From NCBI GenBank assembly GCA_903831305.1, contig CAIKXE010000009.1, positions 1 through 32,897 on the forward strand: DNA of 32,897 nt. The letters are read 5' to 3'. Positions 358 through 32,398 of the stretch are shown here, piece by piece (within the stretch, counting starts at the first letter, position 1; each line of letters begins with the position of its first letter). Made by a program: the position numbers and the translations under genes. A model generated the notes under the pieces. That model did no database searches and was not told where the DNA came from. It saw nothing but the letters and a program-made list of their open reading frames with translations. The DNA is from an uncultured bacterium (GTDB lineage: Bacteria; Patescibacteriota; Minisyncoccia; Phycocordibacterales; GWA1-40-21).

Positions 358-395
358 GAAGGAAGTATAACAAAGTTAACAAAAAAAACTAGGTG

Positions 396-1565
396 CTAAA
401 CAATGATTCCTCCGCCAAGACATACCTCCCCATCATAAAACACCACGGACTGGCCGGGGGTGGGGGCTTTTTGCGGATTAGTAAATTTTATAACTAGGTT
501 TTTTCCTGACTGAGTGAAACGGCACTTCTCCAGAGGTTGACGGTAACGAATACGGGCTGAATATTCTCTGGTAAAATCCGGAGCTTGGCCCAAGGTCCAA
601 TTCACCTCTTTTAATTTTATTTCCTTACTAGACACATCAGCTTCCAGGAGCGGATTATGAGAAACGGTTATAGTATTTTTCTTGAAATCTTTACTGATGA
701 CAAAATAGCGGTCTTCTGTGGTCGTTTTTTTAGTAATCTTAAAACCATGTCTCTGACCCAAGGTATAAAGCTCTACTCCCTCATGGGTGCCGATAATTTC
801 TCCACTTTCATTTAGCACTTTGCCAGACTTGGTCTTAATAAAATGCTTTAGGAACTCCGCCATCTCCACTTTACCAATAAAGCATAAGCCCTGGCTATCC
901 TTCTTCTCCGCCGTTTCTAGGCCAAACTTTTTAGCCAGCTTACGCACCACAAGCTTCTCCATATTTCCCACCGGAAAAAGTGTTTTGGATAATTGCTTTT
1001 GGGTCAAAGTCCAGAGGAAGTAACTTTGATCTTTATTTTTATCTTTACCAGCTAACAGACTAGCACGCACAAGCCGGCCACCAGAAAAAAGCTCAGACTC
1101 AGGTCCTCGGATCTCCTTCGCAGACTCGGCCAGACCATTCGCCTGACAAATTTTCTGATGTCCGGCCACCACTCTCGCGTAATGCCCGGTGGCCACATAA
1201 TCCGCGCCACGCTTCATGGTCCAGTCAAAAAATCCACCAAATTTCACATATTTATTACACATCACATCCGGATTTGGCGTTCGGCCGGCTTTATATTCCC
1301 CAATCATATAATCCACCACTTCTTTTTTATATTCTTTTTCCAAATCTAAAGTATAAAAAGGAATTTGCAGTTTGGCACAAACCCGCATAGCATCCAACCG
1401 GTCCTCCTTCATGGTACAGCCACCCCAAAAATCCGGTTGCCAGACTTTAATGAATACACCGGACACGTCATAACCAGCCTCTTTAAGTAAAGCCGCTGAC
1501 ACAGATGAGTCCACCCCGCCGGATAGGCCCACAAATACCTTCTTTTGATCACCTTTTTTAACCAT
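396..1565 (-). CDS. mnmA: tRNA 2-thiouridine(34) synthase MnmA
   Basis: SGGVDS PP-loop, GRTPNPDVMCN, ATGHYAR, KDQSYFL, DSQGLCFIG, YTLGQR, RIRYRQ, PGQSVVFY...CLGGG motifs. Confidence 0.97.
   Translation of the reverse strand: MVKKGDQKKVFVGLSGGVDSSVSAALLKEAGYDVSGVFIKVWQPDFWGGCTMKEDRLDAMRVCAKLQIPFYTLDLEKEYKKEVVDYMIGEYKAGRTPNPDVMCNKYVKFGGFFDWTMKRGADYVATGHYARVVAGHQKICQANGLAESAKEIRGPESELFSGGRLVRASLLAGKDKNKDQSYFLWTLTQKQLSKTLFPVGNMEKLVVRKLAKKFGLETAEKKDSQGLCFIGKVEMAEFLKHFIKTKSGKVLNESGEIIGTHEGVELYTLGQRHGFKITKKTTTEDRYFVISKDFKKNTITVSHNPLLEADVSSKEIKLKEVNWTLGQAPDFTREYSARIRYRQPLEKCRFTQSGKNLVIKFTNPQKAPTPGQSVVFYDGEVCLGGGIIV
1074..1165. repeat. Palindromic element with terminal inverted repeats, inside the mnmA reading frame
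   Basis: CCGGCCACCAGAAAA (1074-1088) versus the reverse complement of 1151-1165 (CCGGACATCAGAAAA), 13/15 match. It coincides with an unusually long peptide between ATGHYAR and LLAGKD. Confidence 0.65.
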
Positions 1566-21857: not shown

Positions 21858-24800
21858 CTAAAAATCCTGGAATTGCCACATCACAAACGAACTAAAAAGC
21901 CAATTTGTATTCCCGCCACTGTCTATGGACTGATTAGCCGTGATGCTGTGGAGAGCGGTACCATCCTTCACATTCACAAAAGCTACCGCCTCCGAGCCGT
22001 TATCATCAATATTGAATTTAGCTGTGCCGTTATCACTCACGGTGCGAAGTGACATTCTGCCGGCACTTGATCCACGGAGAGTGAGCCTCCCACTAGCGCC
22101 GATAGTCTGCGTGGTATCATCACCAAAAGTCAGGGTATAAGCGGTAGTGGTACTCTTAGTCAGATTATAGAAAGTGCTAGAGCCTAAGATACTTTGATTA
22201 CTGCCATCTAAAGTCACTGTCCCCGCTCGCGGGACAAAACCTCCAGCCCCAGCCGAATTAATAAAGTCACCGGCTAATTTCAAAATATAATTACTAGCTG
22301 TAACGTCCAGTGATCCAGCCGTGATGGTGAGATTCCCGTTCACATCAAAATTTGTGGCTGGTAGGTTAAAAGTGGTGCCGGTATTATTCAGATTTAATGC
22401 TCCGTGAGCGACGTTTAACATGGTTACGGCAGAGTCATCAGCCTGACCAGTATAGCTTGTGGTAGAAGTAGCGGACATCGTCACTGTCCCGGCATTGGTA
22501 AAAGTAGTTCCACTCAAACTAAGTGAACCGTTATTAATGAGAGTGGTCCCAGTTCCCACAGTAAGTGGCGTACCAGTGGCCTGTATAGTCAGAGTTTGTC
22601 CTGGATCAATGGTCAATTTTCCGGCTTTGGAGGCCGTGAGAGTAAAACTGCCAACGGTGGTATCTGTAGTAGAAGCAGAAATAGAGGTAACTATCCCAGA
22701 AGCAGTAGAGATATTATTATTGTTAATAATCAAGTCCCCACCGTTTGTTCCTTGGGCCTGAGTTTGTTTATAGACAGTACCAGCGGCACCATTAGTATTA
22801 CCAGATCCACCATAAGCAGTAATACTTGCCCCACCAAAACCACTAAAATCTGCCTGGCTGCCATCAAGGATAATTGCTATTCTACCCCCACTACCGGAAC
22901 CACCATTACCTCTATTACCACCATTAGCCCGAAGTGTTCCCGCTCCGGAAATAGTACCAGTAATAATATAGACACTTCCACCAGAACCAGTATCACTGCC
23001 ATTTGAGACCAGACCACCAGCACTTAAGGTTCCTGAAATACTAGTCAGACCATTAACATCAAGTAGAATTGCCCCACCACCAGCTGAGGCATAACCGCCA
23101 CTCCCCAGATTAACAGGTGCTGTTACCGAACCATAAACATGGCGAGTTCCACCTGTACTACCGAAATCGCCCCCCATTCCACCGTAGCTTCCACCATTAT
23201 ATATACCTATCGTTGGGGCACCTGGACCATACCACGTGGAATAACCTTTACCATCTACATTGATAGACCCATCCACAGTAAGGTCACCACCAATTGTAAG
23301 ATTCACCTTATACATTTCACCCTGAGCGGTAGTTCCATTTGCCGAGTGACTCATGACAGCTCCACTAGCTACCGTAACATTACCGGAAAAGGTCTGCGGA
23401 ACATCAGTGGTAAATTTAGCACCAGAGCCGACAGTAAATAATGTAGCGGGGTTAAAGGTGGAGGATGTCGCCAGCCAGAGGTTGATATTTGTATAACTAA
23501 AGGTATCAGAGGTGGTAAATGTACCACCGTTGATCTTGAGATAAGAATTATTATTATCACCGGTTAATGTTCCACCAGTTAAATTAACAACTCCACCAGA
23601 ATTGATTTGAAGTGTACTGGTAGTGCTTAATGTAATTGTATTAGTTAGAGGACTGAAAGTAACTCCGCTTTCTATTAAAAGATTTCCTTTATTTTGTAAA
23701 GTGATAGGGCCAGAAGGCAATTCAGTAATTGACGAAGTAACAGGGGTAGTAATATATGATGAGGCAACCAGATTACCATTATCAATTATAAGGGTACCGT
23801 TATTTGTCCCCTGTGCCTGAGTTTCTTTATATACTGTGCCCGCCGCAGCATCATATGTGTTGGTGACATTAGCGTTATCACCACCAAGCGCAGTAATAAT
23901 ACCCGAAAATGAACCAAAGTCTCCAGAATCCAAGACAACTGATACGCGTCCACCACCTCCAGCACCAGCACCAGCAGTATTAGTACCATCACCACCATCA
24001 GACCTAATGATACCACCACCATTTATTGTCGCCGCTCTAATATAAATACTGCCCCCTGATCCCGCACCACTACCATACCCACTAACAGTTTCACCCTGCG
24101 CGGTAACTATTCCATTCACTGCTATACTACCAGTAATATTTAATATTACTGACCCGCCACCACCACCAGCTGATGGACCTCCGCGCCCACCGCTTCCAAG
24201 ATTTATCGGAGCCGTAATTGAGCCATAAGTGACACCAGAAGATGAAGCCGAAAATAAAATACTACCAAGACCGCCATAGGCACCACCACTATAAATGATT
24301 GTGCCCTTACCGGGACCATACCCTCCATCATATCCCCTAGCATCCACATTGATTATGCCACCAGTGGATAAAGTGAAATCACCTCCCACATCCACCCAAA
24401 GAGCATGCGTTTCAGAGGTAGAGTTATCCGTATGAGTGAGCACTCCGTACGGCCCGACAGTCAAATTACCAGTGACAATCAGCCTTTTAGTACTCGTACC
24501 ATATGAAAGAGTTGTAGTAGAATTTGTAGAACTACCGATGGTCAGTGAAGCGATAGTAACCGAACCAGCAATCACACTCAAAGTGGGCGCATTAGTATAG
24601 CCACCATCAATGATCACGTCATCTGTGGTGGTAGGAACACTATTAGTATCCCAGTTGGCCGCGGTAAACCAGTCAGTAGAGGCTGAGCCATCCCAGATAT
24701 ATGGTCCAGAAAAAGGAAATGTCCAGTTTGTATTATTACCACCATCAGTACTAAACTGGGTAATGATAGCCAGACCGGAAGCGTTGGAGTTACTCACCCT

Positions 24801-27425
24801 GGCATAAGAAACACTTGATGTGCCAGCCGGCTCAATGTCAATGTTCCACTGATCCGTGCCAGTACCGCCAGAGCGAGATAAAATTATTTCATGGCCGCTC
24901 GTTCCTGTGATATTAAGCGCACCATTGATTGTCTGTGTACTACCACTTTCAAAAGCTAAAACCTTATCTGCCGTCACTGAAGTCAAATTATAAAAAGTGG
25001 TGTTTCCAGAAACAGTAGAGGTACCGGTTCCGCCAAACACTATTCTGGATGTTCCCGGCGTAAAGATTCCGCTTGCCCCAAGTGTCCAGTCACCACTCAC
25101 ACTAATAGCATTTGACCCTGGGACCAAAGTTCCTGCTGTCACTGTCAAACTACCAGCCAGAGTAGTGGTGGCATCTTGCAAAGCAAAAGTTCCCCCACTA
25201 CCATTTAATATTATATTATTAAAATTTTGTTCCCCGCTCGTTATACTTTTTGTTCCGCTCATGGCTGTGAAATCCACAGTTCCAGCATTGTGGGTAAATG
25301 TTCCGCTGGTTAATAACCAGGTGCCACCCACAGACATAGTACCGCTAGTACTGATGAGTGTCCCACCATTAATCGTCAAGTCATTTGATAATGTCACGGT
25401 GTGAGCTTGCTCATCCAGTGTCCCAGCCGTCACCAATAAATTTGCTACCGACAGATCTGCTGGTAAGGTGAAAGTTCCGCCTGTCCCATTTATTTTTAGT
25501 GTGGCATTAGTATAGGTCCAATCTTTAATATCCCTGGTGGTACCAGTTGCCACATATTCCACAGTTGAACCAGAATTAAGAACACTTGAACCGTTAGTTA
25601 TGGTCTCATCACCAGCCAGCCTTAAAGTGGCCCCACTTGCCACCGTCATAGCATTTGTGGTTGTTAGATTTTGTCCATTAAGACTAAATATTCCGGCATC
25701 AGTATTAACAGCATAAAAAGTTTTTGCTCCAGGTAAAGTAAATACTCCACCCACACCGTTGATTTTAAGTGTGGCATTTGTATAGGTCCAATTTTTAATA
25801 TCTCTGGTACTAGTGGTCGCGGTATATTCCACAGTAGAAGAAGCATTCAAGGTTGGCGCCGCTGGAAAAGTCCCTTGATCGCCGGTCAACTTCATAGTAC
25901 CAGCACTGGTTACCGCTGTCCCGCTGGATAAATTACAACCCCGAAAATCAATCACCCCACCATTGTTAATAGTTATGGCACCGTTTTGTGTCCAAGTACC
26001 TGATCCACAAGTGATATTTCCAGTATTACTTAATGCACCACCAGTGGTCGGCGAATCACCAACACTAAAACTTGTACCAGTAGCAACTGTCATAATAAGA
26101 TACGTTTGGGAAAGTGCCCACTTAACAGTTTTAAAGCTAGAATTAGGACCGATATTTAGATCAAAACCATAAGAGTTTCCAAGAGCGGGAATTTGCAAAT
26201 CAATATTGGGAGCAGTGATGGTTCCTGAGCCGGTATTGGTCATGGATATTCCATTAAACGTCCAGGTACCGGTGCCAGCGGTGATGGTCCCGGCATTACT
26301 TAGATAACCACCCGTAGAGGGTGAATCCCCCACGGTAAAGCTAGTGCCTGAGGCCACAGTAAAACTAATATAGTTTGCATACAGAGCCCACCCGACAGTT
26401 TTAAAATTTGAATTGGGGCCGATATCTATAGAGGCGGCTACTCCGCTACCTAAATTTGGAAAACGGAGATCAATATTAGGAGCAGTGATGGTTCCCGAGC
26501 CGGTATTGGTCATGGACCGGCCAGTAAAGGTCCAGGTACCGGTGCCAGCGGTGATGGTCCCGGCATTACTCAAGTTACCACCGGTTGATGGTGAGTCACC
26601 GACGGTAAAGCTAGTGCCTGAGGCTACGGTCATAACACGATAGTTTTGTGAAAGGGCCCAAATAACTGTTTTAAAGCCAGAATTAGGACCAATATCTATG
26701 GTAAAATCTACCGCGTTACCCAAAGCCGGAATCCGCAGATCAATGTTAGGAGCAGTGATGGTTCCTGAACCAGTATTGGTCATGGATGATCCATTAAACG
26801 TCCAGGTACCGGTGCCAGCGGTGATGGTCCCGGCATTACTTAGATAACCACCCGTAGAGGGTGAATCCCCCACGGTAAAGCTAGTATCAGCAGTTACATT
26901 AAAAGCCGTGGTATTAGCAGTCAAAGCCCAAGTTACCTTACCAATAGTCTGATTCGGAGCATCCAAGGTTTTTGCTCCACCAGTAAAACTCAGAGTCTCA
27001 CTGCCACCAGAGTATGTTCCGCCACTCACAGTAAAATTTCCCGATGAAGTAATAGTATATGTGCTAGGAGCAAAGGTACCGCTGGATTGAGTAAAACCCG
27101 TGACGGAGATAGACTTGCCAAGAGTGATGATTCCAGTATAACTAGAGCTGATAGTAAAAGTAGCTAAAGTACTTGACGCCGCCGTATCCCAGGTACAATC
27201 CTTGCTACCTGAGTTAAATACAATAACGTCATTATTCACCGGTGCGGTACCACCCCAGTTTGCGCCAGTAGAGGCATTGTTATCAGCTCCGCCACCAGTC
27301 CACGTTTTAGTGGCTGCACTGGCATTTCCCGCCAAAAAAAAGAGGCCAAAAAATACCCCGAGAATCACTAAATATTTTTTATTATTTTTAAAATAATTAT
27401 GCGTCATCTGCTTGAGGTAAATCAT
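21858..27425 (-). CDS. Very large secreted beta-strand/beta-helix repeat adhesin-like protein
   Basis: Signal peptide (..NASA/A), TWTGGG...NW and IWDG...W.TAANW motifs, G/T/S/N-rich beta repeats, two Gly-rich GGxYG..GSGG domains. Start re-called to ATG 27425, which overlaps the upstream stop as TAATG; ATG 27407 is an alternative. Confidence 0.87.
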   Translation of the reverse strand: MIYLKQMTHNYFKNNKKYLVILGVFFGLFFLAGNASAATKTWTGGGADNNASTGANWGGTAPVNNDVIVFNSGSKDCTWDTAASSTLATFTISSSYTGIITLGKSISVTGFTQSSGTFAPSTYTITSSGNFTVSGGTYSGGSETLSFTGGAKTLDAPNQTIGKVTWALTANTTAFNVTADTSFTVGDSPSTGGYLSNAGTITAGTGTWTFNGSSMTNTGSGTITAPNIDLRIPALGNAVDFTIDIGPNSGFKTVIWALSQNYRVMTVASGTSFTVGDSPSTGGNLSNAGTITAGTGTWTFTGRSMTNTGSGTITAPNIDLRFPNLGSGVAASIDIGPNSNFKTVGWALYANYISFTVASGTSFTVGDSPSTGGYLSNAGTITAGTGTWTFNGISMTNTGSGTITAPNIDLQIPALGNSYGFDLNIGPNSSFKTVKWALSQTYLIMTVATGTSFSVGDSPTTGGALSNTGNITCGSGTWTQNGAITINNGGVIDFRGCNLSSGTAVTSAGTMKLTGDQGTFPAAPTLNASSTVEYTATTSTRDIKNWTYTNATLKINGVGGVFTLPGAKTFYAVNTDAGIFSLNGQNLTTTNAMTVASGATLRLAGDETITNGSSVLNSGSTVEYVATGTTRDIKDWTYTNATLKINGTGGTFTLPADLSVANLLVTAGTLDEQAHTVTLSNDLTINGGTLISTSGTMSVGGTWLLTSGTFTHNAGTVDFTAMSGTKSITSGEQNFNNIILNGSGGTFALQDATTTLAGSLTVTAGTLVPGSNAISVSGDWTLGASGIFTPGTSRIVFGGTGTSTVSGNTTFYNLTSVTADKVLAFESGSTQTINGALNITGTSGHEIILSRSGGTGTDQWNIDIEPAGTSSVSYARVSNSNASGLAIITQFSTDGGNNTNWTFPFSGPYIWDGSASTDWFTAANWDTNSVPTTTDDVIIDGGYTNAPTLSVIAGSVTIASLTIGSSTNSTTTLSYGTSTKRLIVTGNLTVGPYGVLTHTDNSTSETHALWVDVGGDFTLSTGGIINVDARGYDGGYGPGKGTIIYSGGAYGGLGSILFSASSSGVTYGSITAPINLGSGGRGGPSAGGGGGSVILNITGSIAVNGIVTAQGETVSGYGSGAGSGGSIYIRAATINGGGIIRSDGGDGTNTAGAGAGGGGRVSVVLDSGDFGSFSGIITALGGDNANVTNTYDAAAGTVYKETQAQGTNNGTLIIDNGNLVASSYITTPVTSSITELPSGPITLQNKGNLLIESGVTFSPLTNTITLSTTSTLQINSGGVVNLTGGTLTGDNNNSYLKINGGTFTTSDTFSYTNINLWLATSSTFNPATLFTVGSGAKFTTDVPQTFSGNVTVASGAVMSHSANGTTAQGEMYKVNLTIGGDLTVDGSINVDGKGYSTWYGPGAPTIGIYNGGSYGGMGGDFGSTGGTRHVYGSVTAPVNLGSGGYASAGGGAILLDVNGLTSISGTLSAGGLVSNGSDTGSGGSVYIITGTISGAGTLRANGGNRGNGGSGSGGRIAIILDGSQADFSGFGGASITAYGGSGNTNGAAGTVYKQTQAQGTNGGDLIINNNNISTASGIVTSISASTTDTTVGSFTLTASKAGKLTIDPGQTLTIQATGTPLTVGTGTTLINNGSLSLSGTTFTNAGTVTMSATSTTSYTGQADDSAVTMLNVAHGALNLNNTGTTFNLPATNFDVNGNLTITAGSLDVTASNYILKLAGDFINSAGAGGFVPRAGTVTLDGSNQSILGSSTFYNLTKSTTTAYTLTFGDDTTQTIGASGRLTLRGSSAGRMSLRTVSDNGTAKFNIDDNGSEAVAFVNVKDGTALHSITANQSIDSGGNTNWLFSSFVMWQFQDF
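26020..26885. repeat. Tandem 270-bp (90 aa) repeats, three copies plus a partial
   Basis: 26281-26340 is identical to 26821-26880; the middle copy at 26551 is more diverged. Confidence 0.9.
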
Positions 27426-29632
27426 TAAAACTCCGGTGACTGCGCGCCGAAAATATTTAAAGTAGAAGTACCCATAGTAGCGATGAAGGACCAAATATCA
27501 CATTTACTATTGGTCGTGGTTTGTGTGGGGGCACTGCCACCAGACCAAGCAATAGTTCCGGGCCAAGTGATAGTCCCCGGGGTGCCGGCATCTGGATTAC
27601 ACACCACCAGTTTCAAATTCTGCCCGGCTTCATAATTACTGAAAGTCATAGTGATACCCGTGGTGCTGATGCGCACTAGCTGTTGGTTCCCCTCTCGCCA
27701 GTTTATGGTCATAGAAGATCCGGCGCTCAGTATTTTCTCCGACACTCGTATGGACCCCGTAGCCACCGTTAATACATTTCCTGGAGTGGTAGTGCCAATA
27801 CCGACGTTGCCAGTAGTTGCTTGTAATGTCATTGCTATTGTATTATTGGCTTGAAATACAACATTTTTACCACGAATCATAATATCTTCCCAAGTACCAC
27901 CAGTTCTATTATAAGATTGAAAAATTGAAGCTCCACTACCAGTTGTGGCATCTCCAAGAAGGGCATTGTAATCCGTACCGTATCTCATCTCAAAACCTAC
28001 TCCTGAAGTTGGAAATGTAAAACTACTATTAGCAAGACCTGAAGCTCTAAAGATCCCACTTACTTCTAGTTTAGCTTGAGGTGCCGTCGTCCCAATCCCA
28101 ACGTTACCAACATTATCAATCCTCATTCGTTCTTGTTCTGTTACTGAACTGCTTGGTGTTGTTGAAAATGTTATTCTTCCAGGCATACTTGAATCGCTGA
28201 TAGTTGAACCATCAACTGCAAAGTCAATTCTCGCTCCCGGTCTATAAACTGTTCCTGTTGTAAAACCGTTACCTCTAAAATAGCCCAGGCTATCGCCATT
28301 TTGTACTATGGTAGGAGAAGTAAGTGTCCCTCTCGAGCGATATAAATTAAAGTTAGGACTTGCAGATGCATCAGTATTATTGGCACGATAAAATCCTCCT
28401 GCGGCAAGCCATTCGCCATCGTCTATATAAGAACCAACTGTCCCTCTGACAGATAATTTTGCCCCCGGACTCGCTGTCCCTATTCCTACATTACCATTTG
28501 CGCCGACGGTAAACAACCGAGAATTTGTAGAAGATGACAAAGCAAAAATATCCGCTGACCCCGCCGTGCCATAAATGTCCAATTTAGCTACTGGAGTGGT
28601 GGTCCCAATACCGACGTTGCCAAGATTATTTGTTCCATTGTGTTGTAAAATTACATTACCATAACTACCACCACCGGTAGCACGGTTTCCACCATAAATA
28701 TATATTGGTCCACCATTTTGATAATTTACCGCAGTACTCACCGCATCTGCACCAATAATTTTTGACACAGCCGGAAGTTCGTCATAATAAGGAGTCGGTG
28801 ACCCTTGTAAGATAAAGGCTCCATTATCAGCATGGGCATAACCGTGCAAAGACAAACTAGCACCAATACCAGTGTTCGAACCCCCTGTCATAAAAAATCC
28901 ATTAACATCCCAGGAAGTAATACCGTATCCAGGGTTGATATACATATTGCCACCAAACTTACTAGTACCTGCTACATCCAACTTGGCGCCCGGTGCCGCG
29001 GTGCCTATTCCCACATTGCCACTATTATAATAGATAGCACTACTGGTGGTAGCCGTCCATTTACTACCCGCAAACGCTATGCCATTTTGACGCAACGTCC
29101 CCGTAAAGTTCACGTCCCCCGCCACGGTCAGAGGGTAGCCCGGAGTGGTGGTCCCAATACCGACGTTGCCGCCGTTTGTTTGAAGCACCAAAGACCTCGT
29201 CGAAGAATCAGTGTCTATATAAGAAGGGCTATGTGCGGTATCAGCCCCTTTGGAATATCCAAAATTGAATATTGGAATACCAATAACACTTAACTTTTGT
29301 ATTATTTTTGATTCATTTATCGCATAATTGACCTCTAATGGTGCCCCCGGACTCGTTGTCCCAATACCGACGTTACCATTGGCCCAGGACAAGGTGGTGC
29401 TACCAGTAGAAGAAATCAGTTGGCGGGCGTTGGTGTCAATACTAAGAACTGGAGTGCCGGCATTATCTAAAATCCCTTGGCCCATAATACGCAGGCCCCC
29501 AGTGCCCGTGGCATAAGTAACGGCTATGCCGATACTGACAGAAATAACTGTGACAAAAATAACAGAAATAAGAGTCTTCACCCGGTAAGAGGCCGAACCG
29601 ACATTGTTTTTTTCTTTCTCAAAATCGCTCAT
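27425..29632 (-). CDS. Membrane-anchored fibre-like protein with seven GNVGIGT repeats and a phage-tail-fibre-like C-terminal domain
   Basis: N-terminal TM; 7x GNVGIGTxxP; C-terminal TINW.EGN.Q...TFSN...G..L.L......ITWP..I.W.GG.APT.TT...K.DI.SF. Confidence 0.85.
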   Translation of the reverse strand: MSDFEKEKNNVGSASYRVKTLISVIFVTVISVSIGIAVTYATGTGGLRIMGQGILDNAGTPVLSIDTNARQLISSTGSTTLSWANGNVGIGTTSPGAPLEVNYAINESKIIQKLSVIGIPIFNFGYSKGADTAHSPSYIDTDSSTRSLVLQTNGGNVGIGTTTPGYPLTVAGDVNFTGTLRQNGIAFAGSKWTATTSSAIYYNSGNVGIGTAAPGAKLDVAGTSKFGGNMYINPGYGITSWDVNGFFMTGGSNTGIGASLSLHGYAHADNGAFILQGSPTPYYDELPAVSKIIGADAVSTAVNYQNGGPIYIYGGNRATGGGSYGNVILQHNGTNNLGNVGIGTTTPVAKLDIYGTAGSADIFALSSSTNSRLFTVGANGNVGIGTASPGAKLSVRGTVGSYIDDGEWLAAGGFYRANNTDASASPNFNLYRSRGTLTSPTIVQNGDSLGYFRGNGFTTGTVYRPGARIDFAVDGSTISDSSMPGRITFSTTPSSSVTEQERMRIDNVGNVGIGTTAPQAKLEVSGIFRASGLANSSFTFPTSGVGFEMRYGTDYNALLGDATTGSGASIFQSYNRTGGTWEDIMIRGKNVVFQANNTIAMTLQATTGNVGIGTTTPGNVLTVATGSIRVSEKILSAGSSMTINWREGNQQLVRISTTGITMTFSNYEAGQNLKLVVCNPDAGTPGTITWPGTIAWSGGSAPTQTTTNSKCDIWSFIATMGTSTLNIFGAQSPEF

Positions 29633-29781
29633 TTTTATATAAATATTTTCCCAATATAATTATTCCAAATTTCAAACCGGGCAAATCCCTTGCCTCTCAT
29701 AACTCAGTTATTATTATACCATAGCTGTATTTGTATACAACCACTTTTTGCACATTTCTTCTCTTTCTTCTCTTTCCCACC

Positions 29782-29802
29782 CGTCAACATACGACGTTGA
29801 CG
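29782..29802. repeat. Short palindrome related to 5024-5062
   Basis: CGTCAAC-ATACGAC-GTTGACG. Confidence 0.5.
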
Positions 29803-29823
29803 TCTACCAAAAATAACTTACCA

Positions 29824-29851
29824 TTGACATAAAAAGCAGAACTGCTATACT
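29824..29851 (+). promoter_or_regulatory. Strong sigma70 promoter pointing into the 3' end of the PemK gene
   Basis: TTGACA (29824-29829), 16 nt, TATACT (29846-29851) with a TGn extension. The spacer contains the palindrome AGCAG-AA-CTGCT. Confidence 0.75.
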
Positions 29852-29856
29852 GTGTA

Positions 29857-29907
29857 GACATATGGCTTCGGCCTCGCCCCCACCGCAAGGTGGGGGCAAA
29901 ATATTTT
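29857..29907 (+). ncRNA. Candidate small structured RNA with two tetraloop hairpins; 3' end unknown
   Basis: GGC-UUCG-GCC (29864-29873) and GCCCCCACC-GCAA-GGUGGGGGC (29876-29897) directly after the promoter. Both loops are the extra-stable cUUCGg and GNRA types in the + orientation. Confidence 0.6.
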
Positions 29908-30298
29908 AATCAAAAATCATCTTCTTCACTGATTTCATCAACTCCTGAAAAGTCTTATCTTCTAGCGTCTCAATCTTACGGATTAGTCTTTTTGTATCAA
30001 TTACCCTTATTTGAGACAAAACAGCAGTCGAATCTCTGCCTTCTATTTTTCCTAGATAAAAATAATACTTACCTATCTTTTTCTTACCAGTTAAACCAAC
30101 ACACAGAAAAGTATTTTTATTAAAACCCTTTATAACCAATACTGGTCGATCAAATTTCTGACCTGTACCATCCTGTTCAAAACCAACATTAACTCCTAAT
30201 GAGCACCACCAAATTTCTCTTTCATTGTAAAAAGGAAATTCTTGATTTGAATGGATACTTTTCTTTTCTAAATTCCACTTATCAAAATCTTTTTGCAT
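29906..30298 (-). CDS. PemK/MazF-family endoribonuclease toxin-like protein (orphan)
   Basis: REIWWCSLGVNVGFEQDG....FDRPVLVIK, VGLT, LSQIRVIDTKRL. Starts 3 nt after the gyrB stop, with no antitoxin ORF. Confidence 0.88.
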   Translation of the reverse strand: MQKDFDKWNLEKKSIHSNQEFPFYNEREIWWCSLGVNVGFEQDGTGQKFDRPVLVIKGFNKNTFLCVGLTGKKKIGKYYFYLGKIEGRDSTAVLSQIRVIDTKRLIRKIETLEDKTFQELMKSVKKMIFD

Positions 30299-30301
30299 TT
30301 A

Positions 30302-32398
30302 TTAAATATCCAGATTTGCGAGCTTGGCGTTGCTTTGGATGAAGGATTTGCGGGCAGGGACATCGGTCCCCATGAGCATATCAAACACTTTATCTGCCTC
30401 CTGACCATCAGAAATATGGACTTGCTTGAGCACGCGTTTTTCTGGATCCATAGTGGTCTCCCAGAGCTCCTCGGCATTCATTTCTCCAAGACCTTTATAA
30501 CGCTGAACATGTAGCTTTTCTACTTTTTTAGTTTTATCACCTTTCTGATTGTTCTCCTCCTCGGCCTCTTCTTCCTCCTCCTCCGGAATCGGCTCGCTAC
30601 CTTCTACTATCTCTACGTCCATGGGAATATCCTTACCAAAAATCTTGGTCTTTTCTTCCTCAGAATAAACATAGGTAATCTCTTTCCCTTTTTTTATTTT
30701 ATACAGTGGGGGCTGAGCAATATAAATGTAGCCACCTTCAATGAGCGGTCGGAAATAGCGGTAAAACAAAGTCAGCAAGAGGGTGCGAATATGCGCCCCG
30801 TCCACATCGGCATCGGTGGCAATAATCACTTTGTAATATCGCAACTTCTCCAGGCTAAAGGTATCACCAATGGCGGTGCCGAGAGCCAGCACCAAGTTTT
30901 TGATCTGCTCAGAACCAAGCATCCGGTCCAGGCGAGCGCGCTCAATGTTTAAAATCTTTCCACGCAAAGGTAATATAGCTTGAGTCTTCCTATCCCGGCC
31001 TGTCTTGGCGGTACCACCGGCCGAATCTCCCTCTACAATAAATAGTTCAGACTCCGTAGCATCATTGCTCTGGCAATCAGCCAGTTTTCCAGGGAGAGTC
31101 ATACCTTCCAGAGCCCCTTTACGCAAGATGGAGTCCTTGGCCGCTTTAGCGGCTTTTCTGGCCCGTAATGCCAAGGTCACTTTACTCACAATCGCCCGAG
31201 CATCCTCCGGATTCTCCTCCAGGAAGGCTTCAAAAGCGGTACCAAAAACATCCTCTACGGCACCACGAGCCTCCGTACTACCGAGCTTGGCTTTGGTCTG
31301 GCCCTCAAACTGAATCTCGCGGAGCTTGACGGACACCACGGCGGTCAAGCCTTCTAGCACATCATCTCCGGTAAAGTTGTCCTCGCTATCCTTGATAATA
31401 CCGTTCTTACGTCCATAACTATTTAAAATTCTAGTGAGTGAAGCCTTGAAGCCAGTGGTATGGGTACCACCCTCGGAGGTATAAATGTTGTTGGCAAAGG
31501 CCACCACGCGAGCGGAAATATCATCTACATATTGAAGTGCCACTTCCACAGACTCCACGCCTTCCACCTTCTTCTCCACATAGAAAATATTTTTATGAAT
31601 CGGTTTTTGGAACTGATTATAAAACTTGATGAGTGAATAAAGACCACCTTCAAAATAAAAAGTTTGTGATGGTGCCTCTACACCCAGATCTCGGAAATAA
31701 AAGACGTGAGCCTCGTCAAATTTCTCTGCAGTGTTACGAGCGTCAATCACGGAGATACGGAGACTCTTCACCAAGTAAGCTTGCTGACGCATATGAGAGA
31801 AAACTTTATTCCAGTCAAAGACCACGCCTTCCTTGAAAATAGTCTCATCTGGCTGGAAGAGAACGATGGTTCCGTGCTGTTTGGTGCTACCAATTTTTTT
31901 CACCGCGGCTTTACGCTTACCGCAAGAATATTCCTGCATATAAACACCACCATCCTTGTGAACGGTCACCTTCATATAGATAGACAAAGCATTTACCACT
32001 GAGGCACCCACGCCATGCAAACCGCCAGAGACTTTGTAACCCTCACCACCGAATTTACCTCCAGCGTGAAGCACGGTCATAATAGTTTCCAGAGCTGAGA
32101 CTTTGGTCTGTTTGTGAATATCCACCGGGATACCACGGCCGTTATCAGTGATTCGAACTTGGTTTTGCGGTAAGAGAACCACTTCAATATCATTGGCAAA
32201 ACCACCCATGGCTTCATCACGTGAGTTGTCAAAAATCTCCGTAATCAAATGGTGCAGACCATCGGGCCCCGTGGTACCAATATACATACCTGGACGGCGG
32301 CGCACTGGCTCTAGCCCTTCAAGCACGGTGATCTGCTCCGCCCCATAATGAGCCTCCTTCTCCTTTTTTACCTCTTTTTCTTCTTTTTCTTTGGCCAT
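30302..32398 (-). CDS. gyrB: DNA gyrase subunit B
   Basis: LEGLEPVRRRPGMYIG, DNGRGIP, HAGGKF, SGGLHGVGASVVNALS, EGDSAGG, PLRGKILN, DADVDGAHI, QRYKGLGEMN. Confidence 0.95.
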   Translation of the reverse strand: MAKEKEEKEVKKEKEAHYGAEQITVLEGLEPVRRRPGMYIGTTGPDGLHHLITEIFDNSRDEAMGGFANDIEVVLLPQNQVRITDNGRGIPVDIHKQTKVSALETIMTVLHAGGKFGGEGYKVSGGLHGVGASVVNALSIYMKVTVHKDGGVYMQEYSCGKRKAAVKKIGSTKQHGTIVLFQPDETIFKEGVVFDWNKVFSHMRQQAYLVKSLRISVIDARNTAEKFDEAHVFYFRDLGVEAPSQTFYFEGGLYSLIKFYNQFQKPIHKNIFYVEKKVEGVESVEVALQYVDDISARVVAFANNIYTSEGGTHTTGFKASLTRILNSYGRKNGIIKDSEDNFTGDDVLEGLTAVVSVKLREIQFEGQTKAKLGSTEARGAVEDVFGTAFEAFLEENPEDARAIVSKVTLALRARKAAKAAKDSILRKGALEGMTLPGKLADCQSNDATESELFIVEGDSAGGTAKTGRDRKTQAILPLRGKILNIERARLDRMLGSEQIKNLVLALGTAIGDTFSLEKLRYYKVIIATDADVDGAHIRTLLLTLFYRYFRPLIEGGYIYIAQPPLYKIKKGKEITYVYSEEEKTKIFGKDIPMDVEIVEGSEPIPEEEEEEAEEENNQKGDKTKKVEKLHVQRYKGLGEMNAEELWETTMDPEKRVLKQVHISDGQEADKVFDMLMGTDVPARKSFIQSNAKLANLDI

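Follow-up and report, generated by a model that had tools for sequence, protein, structure and literature searches.

Our comparisons identified a conserved pairing between a MazF-fold toxin gene and a gene for a small structured RNA that converges on it from the opposite strand. Both lie in the window analyzed here, which is one whole 32.9-kb contig (CAIKXE010000009.1; 32,897 nt) of the 760,696-bp genome, assembled in 13 contigs, of an uncultured bacterium of the Patescibacteriota. The toxin gene (29906-30298, - strand) encodes a 130-aa MazF/PemK-family endoribonuclease of an N-terminally extended clade (Pfam PemK_toxin, PF02452), and the predicted RNA of ~50 nt, both ends of which are deduced from the sequence, occupies ~29858-29907 on the + strand. 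MazF is a standard example of a type II toxin, assumed to be partnered by the protein MazE. For the clade described here, we found the RNA and no conserved protein partner, and sequence searches show the pairing to be widespread in the ultrasmall bacteria of the candidate phyla radiation (CPR; Patescibacteria), with the RNA present in hundreds of species. It is therefore probable that the small RNA is the antitoxin of a two-gene toxin-antitoxin module, a reading first put forward in a preliminary description of this DNA and now supported by the homologue searches and by the mutual exclusion of the RNA and MazE.

The small-RNA gene

The predicted promoter consists of a -35 hexamer TTGACA (29824-29829, +) and an extended -10 element, TGc TATACT (29843-29851, +; TG at 29843-29844, TATACT at 29846-29851), separated by a 16-nt spacer. 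With 11 of 12 consensus matches and the TG, it stands at 29824-29851 (+), just where a near-consensus extended promoter opposite the toxin stop had been reported. By this measure it is among the strongest promoters of the genome, which holds nine sites with at least 11 of 12 matches and a TG on its two strands together, two of them facing the two PemK genes. Transcription would start at the A located 7 nt after the -10 element, giving a single-stranded 5' leader of 6 nt, ACAUAU (29858-29863, +), for which position frequencies across 122 loci yield the family consensus (U)ACAAAU. The leader is followed by hairpin P1, GGC-UUCG-GCC with its cUUCGg tetraloop (29864-29873, +), by UC, and by the 9-bp hairpin P2, GCCCCCACC-GCAA-GGUGGGGGC (29876-29897, +). 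The window RNA folds with a minimum free energy of -26.6 kcal/mol, compared with -14.6 +/- 2.8 for shuffled sequences (z -4.3; 0 of 200 shuffles as good), in agreement with the two hairpins originally noted directly after the promoter.

Directly 3' of P2 on the + strand lies a palindromic A/U tail, AAAAUAUUUU (29898-29907, +), that overlaps the toxin stop codon (29906-29908) at its far end; the RNA would end in this U run. Since a terminator scan flags a + strand terminator at this tail, P2 is probably also the terminator stem of the small RNA itself. The earlier judgment that the hairpins are not a simple terminator thus holds for the - strand, where no U tract is found past the P2 stem, and has to be refined for the + strand. 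Tails resembling CAAAnUAUUUUA are present at many of the 80 species loci discussed below.

Upstream of this promoter, 22 nt from its -35 hexamer, there is an inverted repeat, CGTCAAC-N7-GTTGACG (29782-29802), with TTGAC on both strands, and the promoter scan lists TTGACG-16-TACCAT at 29797-29824. The repeat might serve as an operator or as a second promoter.

Conservation of the toxin-RNA pairing

The only other PemK paralogue of the genome (C2:62975-63364) is 45% identical to the window toxin (58 of 128 residues). Past its stop codon, on the opposite strand, it carries TTGACA-16-TGtTATACT and then AUGGCUUCGGCC; its P2-type stem differs (CCCCC-GCAA-GGGGG), with the GCAA loop unchanged. A covariance model made from seven seeds of equal geometry (alignment A3; model R1) recovers two sites in this genome, both PemK linked (79 and 42 bits), the next match (E 0.29) being a plain mRNA promoter. 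R1 and a second model made from 49 re-aligned sequences (R2) match the window at 29823-29903 with 42 and 58.9 bits, respectively.

Our close-relative set comprised the genome itself and 60 genomes of the same order (61 in total). As all counts cover related genomes, and kin are not independent, the numbers given here and below overstate the statistical support. The toxin clade occurs in 26 of the 61 genomes, in up to 8 copies each (56 matches, corresponding to 55 distinct genes), and inspection placed the RNA element beside 54 of these 55 genes; the exception, L055, turned out on a later check to be a canonical MazF. R2 has matches in all 26 PemK-positive genomes, and the matches that it has in 4 of the 35 PemK-negative ones are weak (E 1.3e-3 to 6e-3), promoter-only look-alikes. 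At E<1e-3, 47 of 52 R2 matches are convergent with a PemK match at a distance of 6-170 nt, while the remaining five comprise two at contig ends, one upstream of a PemK gene, and two standing alone.

Similar results were obtained at larger scales. A phylum-wide sample contained the toxin clade in 15 of 151 genomes, and under strict filters all four RNA matches outside the window's own genome adjoined a PemK match. With the filters off, the model matched the expected place at 18 of the 23 loci in this sample, and by eye the element was seen at about 20; loci without a clear RNA include L083 (none), L081 (partial), and L090 (cut by a contig end). From species-representative genomes we collected 504 toxin relatives; among the best 80 of the 504, the RNA lies directly past the stop on the opposite strand in 79, and the 80th sits at a contig edge. 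Altogether, the clade numbers 1684 protein clusters at E 1e-5 or better. The homologue test proposed in the preliminary description, in which the 150 nt past the stops are searched for the promoter, GGCUUCGGCC, and covarying stems, was thus positive at every scale searched.

Almost all named bins among the species loci are Patescibacteria. The whole module of toxin and RNA was also seen in bins labeled Verrucomicrobiota, Bacteroidia, Bdellovibrionales, and others (L121, L122, L139, L160, and L165); the L121 and L122 contigs are labeled Limisphaerales and Verrucomicrobiota, one of them being a 2.25-Mb Limisphaerales-labeled contig. Unless these bins are mislabeled, as metagenome bins may be, such cases point to a horizontal spread of toxin and RNA together. 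Among viral contigs, 45 pattern matches included no relative.

A noncoding RNA on the promoter's strand

A simple hairpin parser failed on 9 of the 131 loci, leaving 122 for the counts in this section. The -35 hexamer is TTGACA at 53 of them and TTGACT at 44, TATACT is the commonest -10 hexamer (42 loci), and a TG is found in 77 and a 16-nt spacer in 81. P1 begins 12 nt from the -10 element at 81 of the 122 loci and 11-13 nt from it at 109, a fixed spacing that makes the A of (U)ACAAAU the likely start. Conservation extends to sequence, with GGCUUCGGCC present in 54 of 122 loci and the leader positions conserved at 66-93 of 122. A comparable start was encountered elsewhere: at G000:C7:28223-28283 (L076) and at G007:C3:12342-12400 (L072), the latter in a relative, there is an unrelated strong mRNA promoter, TTGACA-17-TGCTATACT, with ACAAAU 6 nt further on and then a Shine-Dalgarno-like AGAGGUG. 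A leader-like start is therefore not unique to the RNA gene.

The stems are maintained by compensatory change. Among the 122 loci there are 86 different P2 5' arms, all of them paired, in stems of 4-12 bp; for the middle pair of P1, 59 loci have G-C and 20 have C-G, and compensatory changes affect 4 of 4 and 5 of 5 modeled P2 pairs. In alignment A6, 99.2% of cells are paired (78.8% when shuffled), with 109 double changes against 23, and in A4 about 99% are paired (78-79% when shuffled), with 55 double changes against 11, values that none of 500 shuffles reached in either case; both alignments were re-aligned with the covariance model and hence lean toward its structure. In slid controls, pairing drops to 35-63%, and the non-Watson-Crick cells of A6 are 19 G-U or U-G and 5 nonstandard ones. 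Two MAFFT alignments, A1 (53 RNAs) and A2 (18), left-justified the P2 stems and were excluded from the pair counts.

The identities of the loops allowed us to assign a strand. P1 loops are of the UNCG or GNRA type at 91 of 122 loci when read on the promoter's strand and at 0 of 122 on the complement; for P2 loops the corresponding numbers are 71 and 5. The proposal of a + strand RNA, initially made from the two loops of the window, is borne out by this distribution of stable tetraloops. The RNA is not represented in Rfam 15: with its 4227 families, the whole window gave 0 matches at the gathering score. When matches with E values of up to 10 were admitted, the region 29600-30400 had four at chance level (E 0.11 to 8.2), none on the strand and span of the element.

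Downstream of P2, the RNA takes two forms. In the first, as in the window, a U-rich tail after P2 runs into the toxin stop codon. In the second, an A-rich linker leads to a third hairpin, P3, within which the toxin stop codon lies; U tracts on either strand mark P3 as a shared bidirectional terminator. A P3 terminator holding the stop codon is present in at least 49 of 122 loci, 34 of them bidirectional, and about 15 further P3 loci were recognized by eye that the strict rule had missed; these 3'-end classes are rough, the 32 loci classed as "other" including many imperfect P3 stems. Loops of P3 measure 7-11 nt in the examples inspected. The RNA would be ~50 nt long in the window and ~90 nt in roughly half of the family. 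Our reading of the sequences also distinguishes class II RNAs, in which P2 bears a conserved CGAG/CGAG tandem G-A motif.

RNA and MazE as alternative partners

The absence of a protein antitoxin on either side of the PemK-like gene, remarked on at the outset, was confirmed in the window by the open reading frame (ORF) list and by Pfam searches of the neighbors, which gave no MazE-like ORF; gyrB lies upstream and a 735-aa protein without a Pfam match lies downstream. The same holds for the family. No conserved upstream ORF was seen at homologous toxin loci, and the most widespread family of flanking ORFs occurs at only 5 of the 80 species loci.

The 61 genomes also encode eight canonical short MazF proteins (110-113 aa; Pfam 50-98 bits). 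Seven of the eight genes have an abutting upstream ORF of 81-87 aa (gap of -10 to +2 nt), and the eighth is cut by a contig end; four of the upstream ORFs match MazE in Pfam, and one has a weak Phd/YefM match. The small RNA stands beside 0 of these 8 genes. Since the RNA occurs only with one clade of MazF and a MazE-type ORF with the other, they are mutually exclusive partners of two MazF clades, which is what an RNA antitoxin predicts.

The decay of the modules is asymmetric as well. RNA genes are kept beside truncated toxin remnants (L025, L051, and L053) and occur alone (G052:C7, G054:C2, and G018:C6, with a degenerate copy in G009:C4), and some loci have two RNA genes in tandem, both equipped with a promoter, or a further, degenerate copy by the toxin (L030, G013:C1:92015-92182; L036; L016, 1923-1995). 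Intact clade toxins without the RNA were not found. The RNA thus outlives the toxin and not the reverse, an asymmetry typical of an antitoxin.

An element of similar layout was observed at L074 (G014:C72:1-1696), where a fragment of an NYN-domain (RNase-type) ORF (153-431, +; Pfam E 2.3e-13) is opposed at ~395-496 (-) by a consensus promoter, CTTGACT-16-TGaTATACT, and two to three hairpins reaching into the 3' end of the NYN ORF. A convergent small RNA of this layout may therefore also accompany other nuclease genes in these bacteria.

The toxin

The toxin of the window is, as judged from sequence profiles and a predicted structure, a true MazF-fold protein. Pfam PemK_toxin (PF02452) matches residues 27-127 with E 1.1e-13 (51.7 bits; cut-off, 23.1), and the best sequence match in the Protein Data Bank (PDB) is Bacillus subtilis MazF/EndoA (E 6.5e-9); NCBIfam gave only a weak MazF match, far below its cut-off. 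An AlphaFold2 model with a mean predicted local distance difference test score (pLDDT) of 79.4 returned MazF proteins as all top Foldseek hits (Mycobacterium tuberculosis MazF-mt1, Staphylococcus aureus, and B. subtilis; E 4e-7 to 2e-6, template modeling scores of 0.6-0.75). In the clade, R51-P52 is invariant and T70 is at least 90% conserved; in the PDB alignment, R51 and T70 align with an Arg and a Thr of B. subtilis MazF that we take to be its catalytic residues, and the motif LSQ.R.ID..RL, which also aligns with B. subtilis MazF, is kept.

Outside the Pfam match lies a clade-specific N-terminal helix (residues 5-17, DFDKWN..KK). This N-terminal extension is basic and is absent from the canonical, MazE-paired MazF proteins of the same genomes. 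By eye, the DFDKW segment (residues 1-26) superficially resembles the Trp-containing acidic C-terminal tails, VDWG.P.G.EI, of MazE proteins that accompany canonical MazF in these genomes (ORFs L186, L187, and L190); the N terminus of the toxin may conceivably harbor a built-in MazE-like peptide.

Possible modes of action

We narrowly favor, at a probability of roughly 0.42, a type I-like mode in which the RNA is an antitoxin that acts on the toxin mRNA. In this scenario, RNA made from the strong convergent promoter would be needed to keep the toxin harmless, and it would consist of a 5- to 6-nt A/U leader, P1, a GC-rich P2, and then a U tract or P3. At the stop codon and immediately beyond it, the RNA would base-pair with the toxin transcript, whose 3' end is complementary, and this pairing would bring about cleavage or decay of the toxin mRNA or leave a message without a stop. 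P1 and P2 would then be the stabilizing and terminating body of the RNA, and P3 would contain the toxin stop codon and terminate transcription in both directions. The size of the P3 loop appears suited to a loop-loop contact, which counts for an antisense mode, as does the one feature shared by homologues on plasmids of Campylobacterota, their geometry, with 2-8 nt between the end of the last GC-rich hairpin and the toxin stop. The description of CjrA, a small RNA of the Campylobacter jejuni plasmid pVir, as an antisense antitoxin (see below) likewise speaks for this mode.

Several observations nevertheless weigh against pairing with the mRNA. P1 and P2 are capped by UUCG and GNRA tetraloops, which are poor starts for RNA-RNA pairing. 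At P3 loci, the toxin mRNA should end before it reaches P2 and P1, which would leave the best-conserved part of the RNA without a complement. In the window, the overlap with the ORF amounts to a few bases, so that pairing would need read-through of the toxin transcript; no sense-strand terminator was found in this read-through region. Nor did we detect cognate-specific pairing with the 5' end of the toxin gene, as duplex energies averaged -15.1 in cognate combinations, compared with -14.9 in noncognate ones, and 398 of 2000 permutations were as low.

Most of these points would be accommodated if the folded RNA bound the MazF dimer in the manner of type III systems and blocked its RNA groove, a mechanism that we regard as somewhat unlikely on balance. 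MazF binds 5-9 nt of single-stranded RNA, and ToxN, which has the MazF fold, is inhibited by an RNA. P1 and P2 could here serve as a clamp that presents the (U)ACAAAU leader or the A/U tail to the active site, with the N-terminal helix as an added RNA-binding surface, and convergent placement would serve only tight linkage and the sharing of a terminator. Such binding fits the position of the conserved leader, P1, and P2 outside the overlap at P3-terminator loci, the retention of sequence (the leader and GGCUUCGGCC) as well as structure, and tetraloop caps that suit a scaffold and not a pairing partner; the basic extension of the RNA-paired clade, which canonical MazF is without, and the tandem G-A motif of class II P2 stems, a typical protein-binding feature, agree with it too. 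The ACAAAU start behind the unrelated promoter at C7:28223-28283 implies, however, that part of the leader conservation may reflect a promoter or start-site preference. Moreover, the Campylobacterota homologues keep the geometry and not the sequence of P1, and the only published relative, if it is one, has been called antisense.

It is improbable that the RNA is regulatory or structural without being an antitoxin, for example an insulator (through transcriptional interference or a roadblock) or a substrate, cofactor, or guide of the nuclease in a ribonucleoprotein (RNP). Its strong promoter does fire into the 3' end of the gene, its hairpins sit where the gyrB-pemK terminator is expected, and the tight one-to-one linkage would fit an RNP equally. 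Yet neither the mutual exclusion with MazE nor the survival of RNA genes beside decayed toxins, and not vice versa, would be explained, and an insulator needs neither strand-specific tetraloops nor a fixed distance from the -10 element to P1. An element acting as DNA, such as the end of a recombining or mobile element or a bidirectional terminator with a chance promoter, is very unlikely. The module does appear mobile, being found in many genomic contexts and in bins labeled as other phyla, including the 2.25-Mb Limisphaerales-labeled contig, but the promoter is conserved phylum-wide (97 of 122 loci have TTGACA or TTGACT), the loops and the G-U pairs point to one strand, and neither a recombinase nor another conserved gene flanks the 80 species loci.

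Least probable of all, and rejected here, is a tiny leaderless gene for a peptide antitoxin beginning AUG GCU UCG GCC (MASA...). An AUG does lie 5 nt from the presumed start in many loci, and the frame in the window runs for 15 codons (MASASPPPQGGGKIF). However, at 55 of 131 loci the first 12 nt contain no ATG, five frames stop after two codons (ATG GCT TAG), and beyond the four codons fixed by P1 the predicted peptides are unrelated, the shortest having 2 residues and the longest over 25; the stems, furthermore, vary by compensatory changes. With no reading frame conserved across the 131 loci and no flanking protein conserved, the original statement that the element contains no credible ORF could be extended from the window to the family.

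Gene neighborhood

All large ORFs of the window are on the - strand. The toxin ATG follows gyrB (30302-32398, -), whose stop lies 4 nt before it (TAA TAA ATG), and the toxin has neither a promoter nor a Shine-Dalgarno sequence of its own (30296-30304); from this spacing, it is probably cotranscribed with gyrB. Most homologues have their own extended -10 element (TGnTA(G/T)AAT) 5-10 nt before the ATG (upstream regions of L002-L054), a distance suggesting that their toxin mRNAs are leaderless or nearly so. On the other side, a gap of 273 nt, whose + strand carries the small-RNA promoter, separates the toxin ORF from the next gene downstream (27425-29632, -), which encodes the 735-aa protein. This is one of two very large ORFs (1878 and 735 aa) directly downstream (21858-29632, -). 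The 735-aa ORF, the one covered by the Pfam scan, abounds in repeated GNVGIGT(T/A)xP motifs; judged from this repeat richness, both are probably surface proteins. Neither a tRNA or tmRNA scan nor PADLOC returned a match in the window.

Significance

Here, a whole MazF clade without a protein partner is tied to a conserved structured RNA that is absent from Rfam. The database label "type II PemK/MazF family toxin" probably assigns this clade to the wrong type, and the counting of "orphan" toxins in the tiny genomes of CPR bacteria would change. If the RNA binds the protein directly, this would be a new way of silencing MazF, with an RNA swapped in for MazE, and type III-manner control in a type I-style locus would be the main control of MazF in CPR bacteria; the pair is small (50 nt and 130 aa), and its size would then allow the RNA-protein complex to be solved and re-engineered. 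If instead the RNA is antisense, type I control would not be confined to small membrane peptides.

Comparison with known systems

In the full-text literature searched, no CPR bacterium was described as having a MazF partnered solely by an RNA, and PMC11768034 has nothing on this locus. A structured RNA associated with pemK genes is known: Weinberg et al. reportedly described in 2017 a pemK RNA motif, an Rfam family, upstream of pemK in Firmicutes. No match to this motif was found in the window at E up to 10 in the search of the 4227 Rfam families. In the main text of PMC5737381, pemK goes unmentioned, the motif descriptions standing in its supplements.

The closest parallel comes from the plasmid pVir of Campylobacter jejuni, for which CjrA is described as an antisense small RNA, the antitoxin of a type I system (PMC10470494 and PMC7826846), in passages that name the plasmid and the RNA; it is also cited in bioRxiv 10.1101/2020.01.02.893479. 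pVir encodes a homologue of the window toxin (38.5% identical over 78% of it; Pfam PemK E 8e-8) that shares the N-terminal extension (F-D-x-W-N..KK) and carries the annotation of an orphan "type II PemK/MazF toxin." The strand opposite this gene has, directly beyond the stop codon, a TTGATT-17-TGaTATAAT promoter and three hairpins, the last of which is GC rich and ends 6 nt from the toxin stop; this hairpin-to-stop geometry is kept in plasmids of Nitratiruptor and Helicobacter as well as in pVir. Among the pVir genes listed in an incomplete table, none but the PemK-like one bears the name of a toxin. A CjrA/CjpT type I toxin-antitoxin system of pVir is said to have been reported by Shen et al. 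(2016, Mol Microbiol 101:909), CjpT presumably being the toxin partner of CjrA. The PemK-like locus is a likely candidate for this published pair.

The pVir RNA itself is unlike that of the CPR loci, having neither a cUUCGg P1 nor an ACAAAU leader and scoring only 12 bits with R2; at the sequence level, the CPR RNA is thus a separately conserved family. As a claim of something wholly different, the suggestion that the locus represents a different architecture is nevertheless weakened by CjrA, since pVir has a PemK-like homologue in a like convergent layout. An uncultivated phylum is hereby linked to a tractable Campylobacter plasmid system, and if CjpT is the homologue, the CPR loci would become a large new branch of a little-known family.

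Among type I systems, txpA/RatA and bsrG/SR4 of Bacillus subtilis have convergent antitoxin RNAs that overlap at the 3' ends. The CPR loci resemble them in that the RNA has its own, strong predicted promoter, converges on the toxin gene, and overlaps its 3' end, with a shared bidirectional terminator in about half of the loci, and they differ from them in having a far shorter RNA that is conserved outside the region of overlap. On the sequence level, the cis-encoded RNA gene that abuts the toxin in antisense orientation under its own promoter is that of a type I system, whereas the toxin is a 130-aa soluble MazF-fold RNase and not a small hydrophobic peptide. With the type III systems ToxIN, CptIN, and TenpIN, the CPR pair appears to share an RNase of the wider Kid/MazF-like fold and an RNA partner. 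The toxin, however, belongs to PemK in Pfam and to MazF by Foldseek and not to ToxN/AbiQ, CptN, or TenpN; no ToxI-like tandem repeat array lies upstream of it at the locus, and the RNA, unlike that of type III systems, is single copy, convergent, and predicted to be transcribed independently. Type II MazEF is matched in toxin family, fold, and the aligned Arg and Thr, and differs in its adjacent protein antitoxin gene, the place of which is taken upstream of the window toxin by gyrB. The module would therefore behave like a type I or a type III system while lacking defining features of both.

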